Made by a program: the position numbers and the translations under genes
Notes under the pieces: generated by a model
The model's database searches: none
What the model was told of the DNA's origin: nothing
Seen by the model: the letters and a program-made list of their open reading frames with translations, nothing else
Part shown: piece by piece, positions 3,724-10,059 of the stretch
Numbering within the stretch: the stretch's first letter is position 1
Layout of the letters: the number at the start of each line of letters is the position of its first letter
UHGV virus genome: UHGV-0160578
Strand: one strand, 5' to 3'
Source of the DNA: a virus
Length of the DNA stretch: 10,059 nucleotides

Positions 3724-3727
3724 ACAT

Positions 3728-3750
3728 CGCCGCCTGCGGGCGGCTTTTTT
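3728..3750 (+). terminator. Rho-independent terminator downstream of Q
   Basis: GC stem GCCGCC (3729-3734) / GGCGGC (3739-3744) with loop TGCG, followed by TTTTTT (3745-3750), 5 nt after the Q stop codon. Confidence 0.7.
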
Positions 3751-3892
3751 ACACCCCGTCATCACGCCCTCACACGCTCACCACCGCACAAAACAGCCCG
3801 CAGACACACCAACGCCCCGGCAGGCCGACTAAACGCCATCACGACGCGCTCAGACGCTGAAAAAATAAAATCAGCACCACCGCCAGCGCGCA

Positions 3893-3911
3893 GTGCTTTC
3901 CCCGCCTCGCC
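3893..3911. other. cos: cos site (19-nt cohesive end core; reverse complement GGCGAGGCGGGGAAAGCAC)
   Basis: Plus strand GTGCTTTCCCCGCCTCGCC; its reverse complement matches the P2 cohesive-end sequence as I recall it. Location immediately downstream of Q/terminator is as expected. Confidence 0.6.
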
Positions 3912-4039
3912 TGCCCGCTTTATGGGTCGATTTTAATGCAAGTGCACGAACACACTGGAGACGCACCAGTACTGGCGGTGGTCACGTAGATCCGCCCCTT
4001 AAAAGCCATGCAGAATAATGCAACTATTGCGGGCGTCGG

Positions 4040-4459
4040 CTAATCATCTTCTAAAGGTGGAATTTTGATGCCACTAATTAGCAGTACTTTCCGGTATGCC
4101 TCAAAAATAATGTTGTGTGTTTTTTGTAAATCATCGAGCATTTTTTGCCGTCCTGCTGGGGTATCTTTGGCGAAATTATGAGCGCGAAAAAAATCATGTG
4201 CCAAGTAGTTTCGAGCTGATAGAGCCAGTTCTACATGTTGTAGCGTTTCATCATCTGCCACCCCTTTTTTACGCAATAAATTGCTTAGTCTGCCTAATGT
4301 TAACTTATCAAATTTTAAGAATTTTTCTTTTAATGTTGGAATGTCTTCGCCTTGCTTCATTTCATGTTCGATAAGGACATTAATCAGTTCAACTTCCAAC
4401 AATTGTGCAGCTTCTGAGGTGTAACCGAACTTCCAAAAGACTTCATCAAGCGTTGCCAT
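4040..4459 (-). CDS. Hypothetical 139-aa protein, AT-rich; possible HEPN-like (R-x4-H motif) accessory/defense candidate
   Basis: ORF 4040..4468 (-); first ATG at 4459 (MATLDEVFWKFG...). Sits in an approximately 36% GC island (about 4030-4500) inside an otherwise roughly 55% GC phage. Predicted helical; motif S81-A-R83-N-Y-L-A-H88-D-F. Function not recognised. Confidence 0.6.
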   Translation of the reverse strand: MATLDEVFWKFGYTSEAAQLLEVELINVLIEHEMKQGEDIPTLKEKFLKFDKLTLGRLSNLLRKKGVADDETLQHVELALSARNYLAHDFFRAHNFAKDTPAGRQKMLDDLQKTHNIIFEAYRKVLLISGIKIPPLEDD

Positions 4460-4596
4460 GTGTTCCACTCAAGATAAATGCAGGTTATGAAAAAGAAGAA
4501 TGATGATGGAAATTCCAGATGAAGTCTAACGCCTCGCTCCGCTCGTTGTTCAACCCCGCCAGCCCTGAAAACAAGTTTCACGACTGGCGGCGTTCT

Positions 4597-4803
4597 CTAT
4601 CGTCTGCGTGGTGGTGGCGTAACTCTTGATTGACCGATATGGTTAAACCGCCCGTAATTATCCCGGACTATTTCGGCACACACGACCAGCTCATCGGGCG
4701 TCAGATTTTCGTTGACCATAATCCGCTGTAAACGCTGAACAATAGCCATCAGCTTGATATTTTTAGTTTTATGGTGCGGTATCTCGCCTGGTATTCTGTG
4801 CAT
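4597..4803 (-). CDS. Hypothetical small protein (68 aa)
   Basis: ORF 4597..4815 (-). ATG at 4803 overlaps the stop of the upstream ASCH gene (TAATG), suggesting translational coupling. No recognisable domain; only ORF in this interval. Confidence 0.4.
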   Translation of the reverse strand: MHRIPGEIPHHKTKNIKLMAIVQRLQRIMVNENLTPDELVVCAEIVRDNYGRFNHIGQSRVTPPPRRR

Positions 4804-5255
4804 TATCCAAGCCACCCGTTTTGCTGTGCACGCTCCATCTGTTCATCTGAATAGTTCCATGCTCCATCCGTGGCAACCATTGCCCCGCCAGACATCCCCG
4901 TCTCTGGTTCATACATAACAGCAAGGCCGAGCTGATGCATAATTTCATGATTAATTCTGAATACCAGACCACGCTCACTAAGTTCTTTCCAGTTCACAAT
5001 CTCATATGCGCCTGTATTAAGCCGCTCAATACTTAGCAAGACATAATCTTCCAGCCAGTCTGACAGGTCAGTAACATCTGTTATCCGGGCTTCAACCTTT
5101 CGCCCCGTATACACACCCTGCACCCATTCATGCAAAATCAACGTGTCCCCGCGCTCATAATTACGGTCATTTTTCCGAAACTCTGCACGTTTATGTCCTT
5201 CCAGCACAAGGTCGAAATATTTTGCGTGCAGCTTTACCTCGTGAATTTTTGCCAT
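4803..5255 (-). CDS. ASCH / DUF3850-like domain protein (150 aa)
   Basis: ORF 4803..5291 (-). ATG at 5255 overlaps the A stop codon (TAATG); GGAGTGG RBS about 8 nt upstream. N-terminal signature HEVKL..KYFDLVLEGHKRAEFRKNDRNYERGDTLILHEW resembles DUF3850/ASCH (PUA-like fold). Lower GC (roughly 47%) than core genes. Confidence 0.72.
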   Translation of the reverse strand: MAKIHEVKLHAKYFDLVLEGHKRAEFRKNDRNYERGDTLILHEWVQGVYTGRKVEARITDVTDLSDWLEDYVLLSIERLNTGAYEIVNWKELSERGLVFRINHEIMHQLGLAVMYEPETGMSGGAMVATDGAWNYSDEQMERAQQNGWLG

Positions 5256-7540
5256 TATGTCCACTCCATTACTGTTGAGAATCCCGGCCACTCATCAGCG
5301 ACCGGATACGTGAATTTTTTCCCGTCGTAATTTACGGTTGCCCCACGCGCCAGCGCCTCAAGCTCCCATCGCTGAGGCCTGATACCGTTCTGAGCAAGGT
5401 CAACACGGATACGGGTAATTTGCATTCTTTCCGACCGGGTCAGTCTGGCCGATGGTGCAATTTCATGCGGTTTTAACGGGCTTCCGTTTCTTTGCTGACG
5501 ATTTGGTGTTCTCATGTCGTGTTTTAATGCGCCCCTGAGCGCCCTCACGACCTCCTGGTCATTCCATTCGATAACACCGTCATCAACCAGATTAAGCACT
5601 GCTGCGGCGTGTTCAGAAGGTGTGGGAGCCGGTAACGAAGCATCACCGCCGGTGAACTTTCCACAGTTATTGACAGGACTCCGAGGCGCGGCGATGCCGC
5701 TTTTTAAAGTCAAAGGCTCAACGACCGGAACTTTCGGCACAATGCGCCAGTCCGTCGTTCTGGTGATATGAATATGACGCGCGCCGAGATGCGGCGCGTA
5801 AATGCCGACCACTCTCTCGACTTCTTCCTCGTACTCGTTAACGTCATCCGACGGGCTACGGGCGACCCTGACAGTCTGACAATCGCGCGGGACATTTGCC
5901 CCACCCTGCGCGCTGATATACAACGCAAAATCACCACTGTCTGCGGCGGCGCGTGCAGCCTCGACGCGTTCGTCAAACTCATCAGCAATGCTGACGCCGC
6001 GAGGCAATTTGCGTAGTTCACGGTAAGCCCCCATTGTCGGCAGGCCAACCGTTTTAAATTGCGGAATGCGCCACGTTGACGCCCATGCGGTAACAGCCGC
6101 GGCAGTATCTTTCAGCGGCCTGCCAGTATCGTTATCGAGCTGACCATCCAGTGCATAGCCGTCGATGTTTTTTGAGATGTATTTCGCGATATATCCCGCA
6201 GCACCGCCCCGGTTAAGGTGTTTTGCCTGAAAACGGTTTCGCGCAGCGCCTCTTTCGTCACCATCCTCTTTGAGCGCATAGCGACGCATGATTTCGATAA
6301 TCTGGTTACGCTGGCGTGGATTACAAAAAAGCATCATATGCCAGTGCGGCGTTCCGTCGTGGTGTGGCTCGACGACACGCAAACCGTAGACCTGTAAATC
6401 ATTATCCTTGAATGCCGTGCGCATCAGGCTCCAGATACGGCAGAGATAACGCTGCGCATCCTTTGGATTAAATGCCTCATCGTTCCAGCCGTGATTAAGC
6501 TGAACGGTTTTACTTTCGCCTTTTCCGACCTGACGTGTCGGGTGATACTTTGACGGCGCGGTCAGCGTGATAAACATCCCCACATCACCCTCTGCGGCGG
6601 CGTAACGCTCAATACCGGCAATGGTGTTCATCAGCTCCATCCGGCGAATTTCAGGATTAGAAATACTGCCCATCACCTTACTGATAAGGTCGATGCGCTC
6701 GCCGGTTTCCCTGTTTTCAAGGTCACACGATTTAAGAAATTCCAGATTTGCCTGGCGGCGCGCACGCACATCACGAATGGCATGTTTACTGGCATAAGGA
6801 GAACGGTCTTTATTGACCTCCCCGACAGCAATCAGTAACGCCTCATGCCAGCGCATACGCTGGCCTTTAAGCTGATGAGTCCACCACTCATCGTTAAACA
6901 GACGGGCAATGGCAGAATATGCCTGCCTCGTGGTTATCTGTCCTTTACGGTATTTTTTCCAGTAGAGCGGGGAAATATTGAAAGCACGTGCAGCGCCAGC
7001 AACATGACCATACAGATGATCCTGCGCCTCATCCGTAAACAGCGATTCTTTTTCGCCATGCGCATCCACCCAGGCATCGCAGAGTTCCTCATACATCATG
7101 AAAAGCTGCGATGAGATACGGGCGGCAAACTTTTTCAGCTCCTTGTCATTCATCCCCGGCAGACGCGCATAATGGTCACGCTCTGCCAAAAACAGCAACG
7201 ACGCGTCGGTGTTCATTTCATGGCGCTGATTCACACGCTCAATGCGCGGCCATAAACGACGCTGAAAAGTGGATGTGAGGAAATAAAACCCGTGCACCGG
7301 GCTTTTATTGCGCCGGATGTAGTCATAGCGTGAAGTAAACAGCGAGCGCAAAAAGTAAGGCAGGCGGTTAATCGTGGATAAAACACCTTGCACCTGACGC
7401 ATCTCATCACGTGTAAGGGGTCTTTCGCGCCCGACAGCCTCGCGTGGCGCGTTCCATGCATAAGCACCGGCAAACGTCTTACCGGTGCCTGCGGCAAATG
7501 CTGACGGAGGGACAAAACGCCCGGAGGCTTTAACGGCCAT
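5255..7540 (-). CDS. A: Replication initiation protein, rolling-circle HUH endonuclease (P2 gpA family)
   Basis: ATG at 7540 gives 761 aa, the size of P2 gpA. N-terminus MAVKASGRFVPPSAF as recalled. HUH motif (PHWHMMLF) and paired tyrosines (GYIAKYISK) typical of rolling-circle initiators. The track's longer ORF uses a TTG at 7582. Confidence 0.9.
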   Translation of the reverse strand: MAVKASGRFVPPSAFAAGTGKTFAGAYAWNAPREAVGRERPLTRDEMRQVQGVLSTINRLPYFLRSLFTSRYDYIRRNKSPVHGFYFLTSTFQRRLWPRIERVNQRHEMNTDASLLFLAERDHYARLPGMNDKELKKFAARISSQLFMMYEELCDAWVDAHGEKESLFTDEAQDHLYGHVAGAARAFNISPLYWKKYRKGQITTRQAYSAIARLFNDEWWTHQLKGQRMRWHEALLIAVGEVNKDRSPYASKHAIRDVRARRQANLEFLKSCDLENRETGERIDLISKVMGSISNPEIRRMELMNTIAGIERYAAAEGDVGMFITLTAPSKYHPTRQVGKGESKTVQLNHGWNDEAFNPKDAQRYLCRIWSLMRTAFKDNDLQVYGLRVVEPHHDGTPHWHMMLFCNPRQRNQIIEIMRRYALKEDGDERGAARNRFQAKHLNRGGAAGYIAKYISKNIDGYALDGQLDNDTGRPLKDTAAAVTAWASTWRIPQFKTVGLPTMGAYRELRKLPRGVSIADEFDERVEAARAAADSGDFALYISAQGGANVPRDCQTVRVARSPSDDVNEYEEEVERVVGIYAPHLGARHIHITRTTDWRIVPKVPVVEPLTLKSGIAAPRSPVNNCGKFTGGDASLPAPTPSEHAAAVLNLVDDGVIEWNDQEVVRALRGALKHDMRTPNRQQRNGSPLKPHEIAPSARLTRSERMQITRIRVDLAQNGIRPQRWELEALARGATVNYDGKKFTYPVADEWPGFSTVMEWT
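5670..5689 (-). other. ori: Putative origin nick site (ori) for the A protein, internal to gene A
   Basis: Minus-strand sequence GCGCCTCGGAGTCCTGTCAA matches my recollection of the P2 ori nick-site region, which lies within the 3' part of gene A. From memory only, not verified. Confidence 0.45.
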
Positions 7541-7805
7541 ATGAGCCAAAAGCCTCTGAACAACGCTTGCTGAGTTGCTCAACCTGCGCGTTTAAATCAG
7601 CAAAAGACTTTGCGCTTCCGGTCAGAATATCGTGATGCATCAGGCCGGAAACGAGCTGGCTTAATTTCGGGTAATAACCAACCACCGCCAGCCATTCCTG
7701 ACCGGCGTTTTTACCGCTTTCAGCTCTCTTTTTCTCGTGGAGAATAAACTGAAAGCTGTCACTGGTAACGACATAACGTTCGCCAATTTCAATACGAATA
7801 CTCAT
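7530..7805 (-). CDS. Hypothetical early-operon protein (P2 orf83-like position), 91 aa
   Basis: ORF 7530..7805 (-). ATG overlaps the stop of the upstream TraR-like gene (ATGA); GGAG RBS upstream. Sits immediately upstream of A and overlaps it by 11 nt. Confidence 0.68.
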   Translation of the reverse strand: MSIRIEIGERYVVTSDSFQFILHEKKRAESGKNAGQEWLAVVGYYPKLSQLVSGLMHHDILTGSAKSFADLNAQVEQLSKRCSEAFGSYGR

Positions 7806-8615: not shown

Positions 8616-9116
8616 TTAATGCAGATATTGCTCTGGTTTTACCGACGTCAGAATTGTCGGTGCATACTCAAACAGACTGAATAATTCACGTAATGCACGG
8701 AATAAAGCATCACGCCAGTAACATGACTCTTCATTAATTCGCCAGTATGGCTGGTTGAATTCTTTTTCAGTCAATCCGGCATGCATAAATAAAGTACGAC
8801 GCTGACTGACTGTTAAAAAACTAATATATGCATACTCACTTGCGCCAACCTGACGGCGTTTTGAGAATGCCCCACGCAATTCATCAATTGCACAAACCAG
8901 CCGTTCACGTTCGACGTCGTTCATTTCTTCAAAACGCATCGTTGCGTGACGCTGTTTTAACTGCGCATGAAAGCAAACCGTTAACCGTTCGCGCTCCATC
9001 ATCTGATTATAATAATCACATGTATCCTGCCAGCGAGGGACGGCCAGATGCTTACCAATTATCCGGCGCATAGTTGCTGGCTGTTTTTCGACGAGATTGA
9101 GCGTCATCACTGTCAT
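8616..9116 (-). CDS. B: Replication protein B (helicase-loader-like, P2 gpB family)
   Basis: 166 aa, same length as P2 gpB. N-terminus MTVMTLNLVEKQPA as recalled. Start overlaps the stop of the upstream small ORF (ATGA). Confidence 0.88.
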   Translation of the reverse strand: MTVMTLNLVEKQPATMRRIIGKHLAVPRWQDTCDYYNQMMERERLTVCFHAQLKQRHATMRFEEMNDVERERLVCAIDELRGAFSKRRQVGASEYAYISFLTVSQRRTLFMHAGLTEKEFNQPYWRINEESCYWRDALFRALRELFSLFEYAPTILTSVKPEQYLH

Positions 9117-9283
9117 TTCCAGACCCTCCGGCTTTTCAGAAAGGTCAGAGCCTTTTTTAACGGACTCTGTTTTTTGGTGCGGATAATGATTCCCTTGCGA
9201 CCCTTCCCGTGGGTGATGGTGAAGTCAATCGCCCTGGGGCTTTCGTTACGCAGTAACTGAGCAATACAACGCGGCTCATTCAT
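9113..9283 (-). CDS. Small hypothetical basic protein (P2 orf78-like position), about 56 aa
   Basis: ORF 9113..9310 (-). In-frame ATG at 9283 lies 2 nt after the cox stop; its stop overlaps the B start (ATGA). Alternative ATG at 9310 would overlap cox by 25 nt and lacks an RBS. Confidence 0.45.
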   Translation of the reverse strand: MNEPRCIAQLLRNESPRAIDFTITHGKGRKGIIIRTKKQSPLKKALTFLKSRRVWK

Positions 9284-9285
9284 AA

Positions 9286-9558
9286 TCACAACCCCATCCA
9301 CAAAAGCCATGCATCACGCTGTTCAACCGGTCGGTTATAAAACGCCTCACGTACAGCGCGATTAAACTCAGGAATGAAAACCCATTTTTCACCGGCACGA
9401 GCCTTCGGTTTGCAAGGATCACGCAATTCAATAATTGGTAATTTATTTGCCTTCACCATTTCACTGACGGCTGTCTTTGGCTTCCCTAATAAATCAGCAA
9501 ATTTATCCACATGAACCGCATCAAGCGGATACTGAATCACATAATTTTCAGCGTCCAT
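9286..9558 (-). CDS. cox: Cox-like excisionase / early-promoter regulator
   Basis: About 90 aa, first gene of the early operon. C-terminal pattern ...AGEKWVFIPEFN...RPVEQRDAWLLWMGL resembles P2 Cox (...AGEYWVY.P.WN...RP.E.RDGWLMWLGL). ATG at 9558 has a GAGGG RBS 9 nt upstream. Confidence 0.78.
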   Translation of the reverse strand: MDAENYVIQYPLDAVHVDKFADLLGKPKTAVSEMVKANKLPIIELRDPCKPKARAGEKWVFIPEFNRAVREAFYNRPVEQRDAWLLWMGL

Positions 9559-9694
9559 ATATGGTACCCTCATAGGATCCAGCCCTTTCTAAACCACTCA
9601 AAACCGTTTAGACGCTGGTTTATTCTCAAATCAATGGAACCTATATAGGTTCCAGTTTTGAGGGAATTTAGTCCCTATATAGGCACCATGTCAA
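9559..9694. promoter_or_regulatory. Immunity switch region: early promoter Pe (leftward), repressor promoter Pc (rightward) and operator repeats
   Basis: Minus strand has a perfect -35 TTGACA (9689-9694) and a -10-like TAAATT (9665-9670) at 18-bp spacing, aimed at cox. Two copies of palindromic CCTATATAGG (9640-9649, 9674-9683) flank this -10; the first lies within the perfect 18-bp palindrome GGAACCTATATAGGTTCC (9636-9653). Confidence 0.6.
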
Positions 9695-9988
9695 ATGAAA
9701 TTAAGCGAAAAGATTAAGGCCTTGCGTGAGGCTGAAGGGCTAAGCCAATCAAAATTCTGTGAAATCATAGAGTTACCGCTAAGCACACTTAAAAAATATG
9801 AAGGAGGAAACTTTGAACCCGGTGGCACAGCTTTGCTAAAAATCACTATGCATCCCACATTCCAAAAATATGCTCTATGGCTTATGACAGATAAAACCGC
9901 GCCGGACGCAGGACAAATCGCACCGGCTCTCGCGCACATTGGGCCAGAGTCAACAGAGTCCAACCACTCCGCGAAAAGGATTGGCTAA
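9695..9988 (+). CDS. C: Immunity repressor (P2 C-like)
   Basis: 97 aa, divergent from cox. C-terminal region KYALWLMTDKTAPDAGQIAPALAHIG resembles P2 C (KYTLWFMTNQIAPESGQIAPALAHFG as recalled); N-terminal region differs, so a distinct immunity type. Weak or absent SD. Confidence 0.78.
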   Translation: MKLSEKIKALREAEGLSQSKFCEIIELPLSTLKKYEGGNFEPGGTALLKITMHPTFQKYALWLMTDKTAPDAGQIAPALAHIGPESTESNHSAKRIG

Positions 9989-10059
9989 CTCTATATAAAG
10001 ATTACATTTTCACCATTTGCTACCAAGATGGTGAATACAGCGCCGGAGGGCTTTCTTAT

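Follow-up and report, generated by a model that had tools for sequence, protein, structure and literature searches.

Two palindromic decamers flanking the early promoter of a P2-like prophage are probable operators of its C repressor

Among the P2-like phages, P2, P2 Hy dis and WPhi were the only ones with known operator positions by 2007 (PMC1904268), and our literature search found no operator mapping of later date. In P2 these operators are 8-bp half-sites, 22 bp apart centre to centre, which flank the -10 of the early promoter Pe; in P2 Hy dis they are 8-bp half-sites, 26 bp apart, which flank the Pe -35; and in WPhi they are 10-bp half-sites, 34 bp apart, which flank the Pe -10 (PMC1904268). 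In WPhi, repression in vivo requires both half-sites (PMC1904263). The P2 repressor, C, is the standard example of a protein that binds direct repeats lacking palindromic symmetry, and all classes seem to recognise direct repeats (PMC2995052); the same recognition of direct repeats by P2 C is stated in another report (PMC4752584). P2 C has been modelled as a symmetric dimer making one specific and one less specific helix contact, with its recognition helices 26 Å apart (PMC2995052). The paper describing the P2 C structure cites as an analogue the restriction-modification controller C.Esp1396I, a small helix-turn-helix protein whose dimers cooperate in binding directly repeated palindromes, one dimer per repeat (PMC2995052). 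Its sites lie just 15 bp apart in an unrelated system, and it is likened to the locus described here by mechanism.

We analysed a stretch of 10,059 nucleotides from the virus genome UHGV-0160578, hereafter the window, which represents the early and regulatory region of a P2-like (Peduovirus) prophage in reverse orientation (Table 1). The gene order cox-orf78-B-orf80-83-A is that of the L-413C annotation, and cox faces C across a short intergenic region, as in P2-type C/Cox switches. The accessory ('tin/old') region between Q and A (3724-5291) encodes two proteins, one of 142 aa whose function is not known (phrog_12893) and one of 162 aa that has ASCH/DUF3850 and DUF7415 domains; in related phages the cargo at this position is different, for example the cytolethal distending toxin of the T22 phage.

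Table 1. Features of the window, with positions counted from its first letter
Feature	Coordinates	Strand	Remarks
O, P, Q			Left end of the window
Short accessory region	3724-5254		Follows O, P, Q
A	5255-7582	minus	With orf83-80
B	8616-9116	minus	With orf78
cox	9286-9558	minus	Lytic repressor and excisionase; Pfam Phage_Cox, E = 1e-23
Tentative Pc -10 region	9560-9567	plus	TATGGT / TGGTAC; aligned to the annotated WPhi Pc; weak consensus match
Outer inverted repeat	9657-9662 and 9625-9630		CTCAAA and TTTGAG in the minus-strand reading; encloses TGGAACCTATATAGGTTCCA
Perfect 20-bp palindrome	9635-9654		TGGAACCTATATAGGTTCCA; surrounds the distal decamer
Promoter-distal decamer	9640-9649		CCTATATAGG; O2 in WPhi nomenclature; about +9 to +18 of the predicted Pe transcript
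Predicted Pe start	9657	minus	A; by analogy, the last base of the annotated WPhi promoter being taken as the start site
Pe -10 hexamer	9665-9670	minus	TAAATT
Promoter-proximal decamer	9674-9683		CCTATATAGG; O1 in WPhi nomenclature; in the Pe -35/-10 spacer, about -26 to -17
Pe -35 hexamer	9689-9694	minus	TTGACA; abuts the C start codon
C	9695-9988	plus	Immunity repressor, 97 aa, helix-turn-helix; predicted recognition helix region LPLSTLKKYEGGN
int			Begins at the right edge of the window

The C protein carries a Pfam HTH_3 domain and matches the P2 C structures (PDB 2XCJ and 2L49) over residues 3-97 with E = 1.9e-21. It shares 56% of its residues with WPhi C and 43% with P2 C, and its divergence from the latter is concentrated in the N-terminal, DNA-binding part, with 34% identity over residues 1-56 against 56% over residues 57-97; an earlier note on this DNA, made by a model from the letters alone, had described just such a protein, unlike P2 C at its N terminus and conserved at its C terminus. 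Cox is 82% identical to WPhi Cox. The records disagree on the cox start, placing it at the ATG at 9573 (95 aa) or at 9558 (90 aa; 273 nt), and the ATG at 9558-9556 appears the likelier one, because it aligns with the N-terminus of WPhi Cox and is preceded by GAGGG.

The decamer CCTATATAGG, itself a perfect palindrome, occurs twice in the 10,059 bp, with no third match even when one mismatch was allowed (0.04 expected), and two matches in one sequence were obtained in none of 200 shuffles. The two copies lie 34 bp apart centre to centre, one on each side of the Pe -10, exactly as the earlier note had placed them. That note had also described one copy as part of a perfect 18-bp palindrome, GGAACCTATATAGGTTCC (9636-9653); the palindromy holds, and the length needs correcting, since the symmetry runs on to the 20 bp of TGGAACCTATATAGGTTCCA. 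Its predicted Pe, with a perfect -35 hexamer, proved to be the sole sigma-70-like site in a promoter scan of 9400-10059 (18-nt spacer, 10 of 12 matches), and in a weighted scan it scored 13.2 against at most 6.4 for every other candidate.

On the plus strand, no promoter passed the scan of 9400-10059. The tentative Pc -10 had the second-best plus-strand score in the weighted scan (5.2), and a Pc start near 9573-9575 is a guess from the alignment to WPhi Pc (record positions 1911-1875); with this guessed start the Pe and Pc transcripts would overlap by about 85 nt, compared with about 82 nt in WPhi. The block GGATCCAGCCCTTTCTAAACC, at 9575-9612, recurs in WPhi and P37, and TCTAAAC...GTTTAGA makes an inverted pair there; it is a candidate Cox-binding region because the Cox protein is 82% identical to that of WPhi.

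Of the characterised systems WPhi, rather than P2, is the nearest model. Like the window, WPhi has a 97-aa C, a Pe -35 TTGACA that abuts the C start codon, an inverted repeat around the distal site and a closely similar Cox, and its 10-bp half-sites likewise lie 34 bp apart around the Pe -10 (its Pe is annotated at record positions 1757-1793), which places the window within the WPhi-type architecture. Counted on the Pe strand from the first T of TTGACA, the decamers start after 11 and 45 nt in the window, whereas the WPhi half-sites TATTGGTGAC start after 12 and 46 nt. The geometry thus agrees to within 1 bp, while the sequences are unrelated: the half-site of WPhi, read on its Pe strand, is the non-palindromic TATTGGTGAC, whereas here it is the palindromic CCTATATAGG. 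The recognition helices differ as well (ALGTVKNYE in WPhi, PLSTLKKYE here), and the cox-C spacer of the window is 16 nt shorter than that of WPhi and lacks a 19-nt segment bearing the WPhi Pc -35.

P2, which the earlier note had taken as its reference, is the more distant relative: the immunity is indeed distinct from that of P2, but the nearest layout, with 10-bp sites 34 bp apart, is that of WPhi. P2 shares with the window a homologous C, two repeats that flank the Pe -10, and, if the tentative Pc is right, a face-to-face arrangement of Pe and Pc with Cox, and differs in having 8-bp non-palindromic GTTTAGAT repeats 22 bp apart. The Pe -35, the -10, O1 and O2 are annotated in the P2 record, and the P2 repeats, as well as those of phiT5282H/SEN5, occupy offsets equivalent to those of the decamers here.

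The earlier note had pointed in addition to a related CTATATA motif just after C. The motif is present at 9991-9997, as stated, but its relation to the decamer does not hold up: set against CCTATATAGG over ten bases (TCTATATAAA, 9990-9999), it differs at three of them, and matches of this quality occur in the window at chance level (15 found, 18.8 expected). We rejected it as an operator on this count, as well as for lacking the CC/GG ends and because the homologous stretch is kept in WPhi, whose operators differ.

We scanned one genome per species, which yielded 80 loci encoding C homologues, and counted, in the 79 species-representative loci used for the helix count, those with at least two CCTATATAGG-like decamers (at most two mismatches) within 110 bp upstream of C. 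Such pairs were present in 8 of the 13 loci whose helix fits T[LYF][KRAT]KY[ED] and in none of the 66 others (Fisher p = 5e-8, a value that overstates independence, as the loci are phylogenetically related). The eight two-site loci come from Escherichia, Kosakonia, Enterobacter, Dryocola, Brenneria and, in three cases, Pseudomonas; their sites are spaced 24-34 bp centre to centre and always straddle the -10, within spacers that have otherwise diverged. Decamer positions 1, 2 and 10 (C, C and G) are near-invariant across this clade, and the variation falls mainly on the symmetry partners 3 and 8 (CCCATATAGG vs CCTATATGGG). Half of the 16 sites in these loci are perfect 10-bp palindromes, each expected by chance at about 1e-3.

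Natural variants of the same switch point in the same direction. R18C, described as a virulent, lytic P2-like phage in a report that gives no cause and describes no lysogeny or immunity test (PMC6823313), differs from the window at 2 of 810 bases, and these two differences fall one in each decamer: 9649 G>A replaces the last base of the distal copy, and in the proximal one the second base is altered by 9675 C>A. Two random substitutions would be distributed in this way with a chance of about 3e-4, and one mutation per site is what is expected of a virulent escape mutant, because repression in WPhi needs both half-sites. L-413C, a clear-plaque mutant of L-413 (PMC3448106), shows four differences from the window, three of which lie in this segment (chance about 1.5e-3): 9637 G>T in an arm of the palindrome, 9666 A>G in the Pe -10, and 9683 G>T at the last base of the proximal decamer. 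The decamer mutations of the lytic isolates thus affect positions 2 and 10, which are near-invariant in the clade. In both phages C is 100% identical to that of the window, which in these comparisons represents the wild-type prophage form, and a search of 5,426 E. coli genomes found the 75-bp segment in neither its R18C nor its L-413C form. We infer from these positions that the mutations are linked to the lytic phenotypes of the two phages. For L-413C, operator loss is not the unique explanation of the phenotype, because 9666 hits the -10 and 9683 G>T removes AGG, the probable ribosome-binding site of C, whose counterpart GGAACC is conserved in relatives. In the Yersinia phage HQ103 a 7-bp deletion, at the equivalent of window 9851-9857, truncates C, which is annotated there as a 186-nt gene.

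Among the 420 E. coli prophages that bear the switch, the wild-type distal 30-mer (9630-9659) is exact in 415 and the proximal one (9667-9696) in 407, which is weak evidence for the decamers because the whole region is at least 99% identical. Within the 75-bp probe, about a quarter of these prophages (106 of 420) are not identical to the window. We sampled five of these variants, and each proved to be altered in the Pe -10 or directly beside it (9664 G>A, 9665 A>G, 9666 A>G); in four of them 9665 A>G turns TAAATT into TAAATC, with loss of the conserved last T; prophages with such an altered -10 may be unable to fire the early promoter.

The case for operators is made by the sequence and geometry of the decamers, the homology of their layout with that of WPhi, their co-occurrence with the recognition helix and the mutations in lytic isolates. 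On this comparative and natural-variant evidence, the proposal of the earlier note that the two CCTATATAGG copies are C operators, of a type distinct from that of P2, is very probably right. In a lysogen, C dimers would occupy the proximal site in the spacer of Pe and the distal site past the predicted start, probably binding cooperatively and bending the DNA, by extension from WPhi C and P2 C (PMC1904263). Bound C would exclude RNA polymerase from Pe and keep cox, B and A silent, so that lysogeny is maintained and infection by further phages of this type is prevented. Since both the operator sequence and the recognition helix differ, the type is predicted to be heteroimmune to both P2 and WPhi. 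As each decamer is a palindrome, the simplest view is that it would be a whole symmetric site occupied by a single C dimer, the two recognition helices of which would touch the outer CC/GG.

Other roles for the decamers were weighed against this one. We consider it very improbable that Cox or a host protein binds them, or that they are AT-rich -10-like elements, for instance of Pc. TATATA does resemble a -10, the best plus-strand candidate (TTCTCA, 17 nt, TAGGTT; 9623-9651) overlaps the distal decamer, and in P2 the Cox protein, too, binds in the cox-C intergenic region. Plus-strand promoter scores do not exceed 6.2, however, against 13.2 for Pe, and the lytic isolates are mutated at the flanking CC/GG and not at the TATATA core. 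As for Cox, that of the window is WPhi-like and the decamers, which match nothing in the WPhi spacer, are not, and we rejected this assignment; the decamers, wholly different from the WPhi sites, thus vary with C (56% identical to WPhi C) and not with Cox (82%). The known sites of Apl, the counterpart of Cox in phage 186, are moreover direct repeats one helical turn apart (PMC7498355). A role of the distal palindrome mainly as a nucleic-acid hairpin (a stem-loop at the 5' end of the Pe transcript, a Pc-leader structure or an attenuator), to which the resemblance with the proximal decamer would be secondary, has more in its favour but is still improbable. The palindrome was listed in the scan as terminator-like, its stem being 8 bp long and its tail TTGATTTGAG, and its folding gave z = -2.2 to -5.8. 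In most relatives whose C is at least 52% identical, a hairpin with other arm sequences occupies the equivalent position, and the WPhi start site, taken as the last base of the annotated Pe promoter, lies within the 5' arm of the hairpin. Against this, the promoter spacer contains the decamer a second time but no hairpin, and relatives from Pseudomonas, Dryocola and Hafnia keep the decamer pair with little or no hairpin (z -1.5 to +1.0); the T-run is poor for a terminator, and no strand preference was detected.

The hairpin may nonetheless coexist with the operator, as the two roles are not exclusive. Folded as RNA, the distal palindrome together with its CTCAAA/TTTGAG arms reaches -13.7 kcal/mol (z = -2.2; z = -5.8 in a 48-nt frame), and the hairpin would begin 3 nt from the 5' end of the predicted Pe transcript. 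An inverted repeat at the position of 9625-9662 is also present in WPhi (L002) and in L030, L032, L037, L038, L047, L050, L051 and other loci, its arms being AAAAGGT/ACCTTTT in WPhi and GGTATCCA/TGGATACC, CAATGGTTTTA/TAAAACCATTG, GCTTGGTGGT/ACCATCAAGC and others in further relatives. Over the WPhi-like half of the family a hairpin enclosing the distal operator is conserved, with covarying arms. The early transcript could bear it as a 5' stem-loop, or it could be a Pc-leader structure or a feature acting at the DNA level; folding energies and G-U counts did not separate the Pe strand from the Pc strand (11 vs 17 loci, Wilcoxon p = 0.10). As an intrinsic terminator the hairpin (9654-9635, tail TTGATTTGAG) is not favoured, its T-run being weak, and half of its stem pairs are A-T.

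A closer contest concerns the way in which C would read its operators, whether as symmetric sites or, in the classical P2 manner, as direct repeats. The latter is the less probable of the two accounts, though a substantial one. It agrees with the published P2 C model and its unequal helix contacts (PMC2995052), and it draws on the Kosakonia relative (L028), whose helix is identical over LPLSTLKKYE and which has CCTATATGTG twice, with GGAACCTATAT in both copies and GTG in place of AGG, so strict palindromy is not required; in the Dryocola locus (L046), as in Kosakonia, the sites form 14-bp direct repeats. Set against it are the eight perfect palindromes among the 16 sites, the variation at symmetry partners 3 and 8, the Enterobacter locus (L042) and three Pseudomonas loci, in which the two sites match over their longest stretch (11-12 bp) in inverted and not direct orientation, and the lytic-isolate mutations, which strike both ends of the decamer. 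Symmetric reading by C is also plausible on the dimensions of P2 C, as 26 Å corresponds to about 7-8 bp, the distance from CCT to AGG.

The family rule of non-palindromic direct repeats does not describe this locus, where the unit is a perfect palindrome, and a direct-repeat operator rule does not seem general for the P2 family. The paired sites are inverted in L042, L078, L092, L098, L032, L043 and P37 and direct in L028, L046, L055 and L061. The sequence GGTTCCGA is arranged directly in two loci and inversely in two others, all with an STLKKLE helix; the P37 sites are TTAATGAC and GTCATTAA, and a Pseudomonas group has 16-bp near-palindromes, GTTCCTTG..AGGAAC. In other C classes, too, presumed sites in either orientation, inverted or direct, were seen in the spacers upstream of C (L003 (P37), L032, L043, L055, L061, L071 and L099), even between loci with nearly identical recognition helices. 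A broader proposal, which we advance tentatively and regard as having somewhat less than an even chance of holding in full, is that throughout the STLKKYE/STYKKYE-helix clade, from Escherichia to Pseudomonas, each half-site would be a full symmetric operator whose orientation is irrelevant, that the direct-repeat behaviour of P2 C would be derived and not a family rule, that the lytic phenotypes of L-413C and R18C would reflect operator (vir-type) mutations, and that the distal operator would lie within a conserved hairpin.

The immunity type differs from that of P2 but is not new: by sequence it is the type of L-413C and P24B2. C is identical in published phages, and among 5,426 complete E. 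coli genomes 420 carry the switch (75-bp probe over the operators), always as a single copy and always on the chromosome. The 810 bp at 9250-10059 are 100% identical to Peduovirus P24B2 and 98.9-99.9% identical to 'P2' of E. coli O157:H43 T22, MET_P1_103_31, R18C, P2_AC1, FSL SP-004, vB_YpM_50, L-413C, vB_EcoM-569R9 and HQ103 (for P24B2, L-413C and R18C the range is 99.5-100%), and C is 100% identical in seven of the listed records, among them L-413C, R18C, P24B2 and FSL SP-004. L-413C and its relatives (P24B2, R18C, FSL SP-004, vB_YpM_50 and the T22 'P2') thus share with the window an identical C and a matching cox-C spacer; they differ from it in the point mutations in or beside the decamers of L-413C and R18C, and HQ103 in the 7-bp deletion in C. 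L-413C was part of a published survey of P2-like regulatory regions, in which C proteins of one class are at least 95% identical (PMC3448106). On that measure the window lies outside the WPhi immunity class (class III of Karlsson/Nilsson), its C being 56% identical and its half-site CCTATATAGG in place of TATTGGTGAC, and outside the P2 class (class I), with a C of 43% identity and no GTTTAGAT half-sites 22 bp apart. A full-text search, in which figures are not searchable, found CCTATATAGG in no phage paper.

Apart from the puzzle of recognition and the mutations in lytic isolates, this is an ordinary phage immunity region, albeit one that about 8% of complete E. coli genomes have, and knowledge of its operators would explain which phages are mutually immune. 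Phages of this type are in practical use, L-413C in plague diagnosis and R18C in Citrobacter and Shigella models, and the putative operators offer a simple reason why both are lytic although their repressor and integrase genes look undamaged; the truncated C of HQ103 would be a different route to a lytic phenotype within the same immunity type. If the broader proposal is true, the hairpin around the distal operator may govern how stable the early transcript is or how strongly C is expressed. For the small field concerned with P2 repressors, a natural relative with palindromic sites provides a direct comparison for the old puzzle of how a symmetric C dimer reads asymmetric direct repeats.
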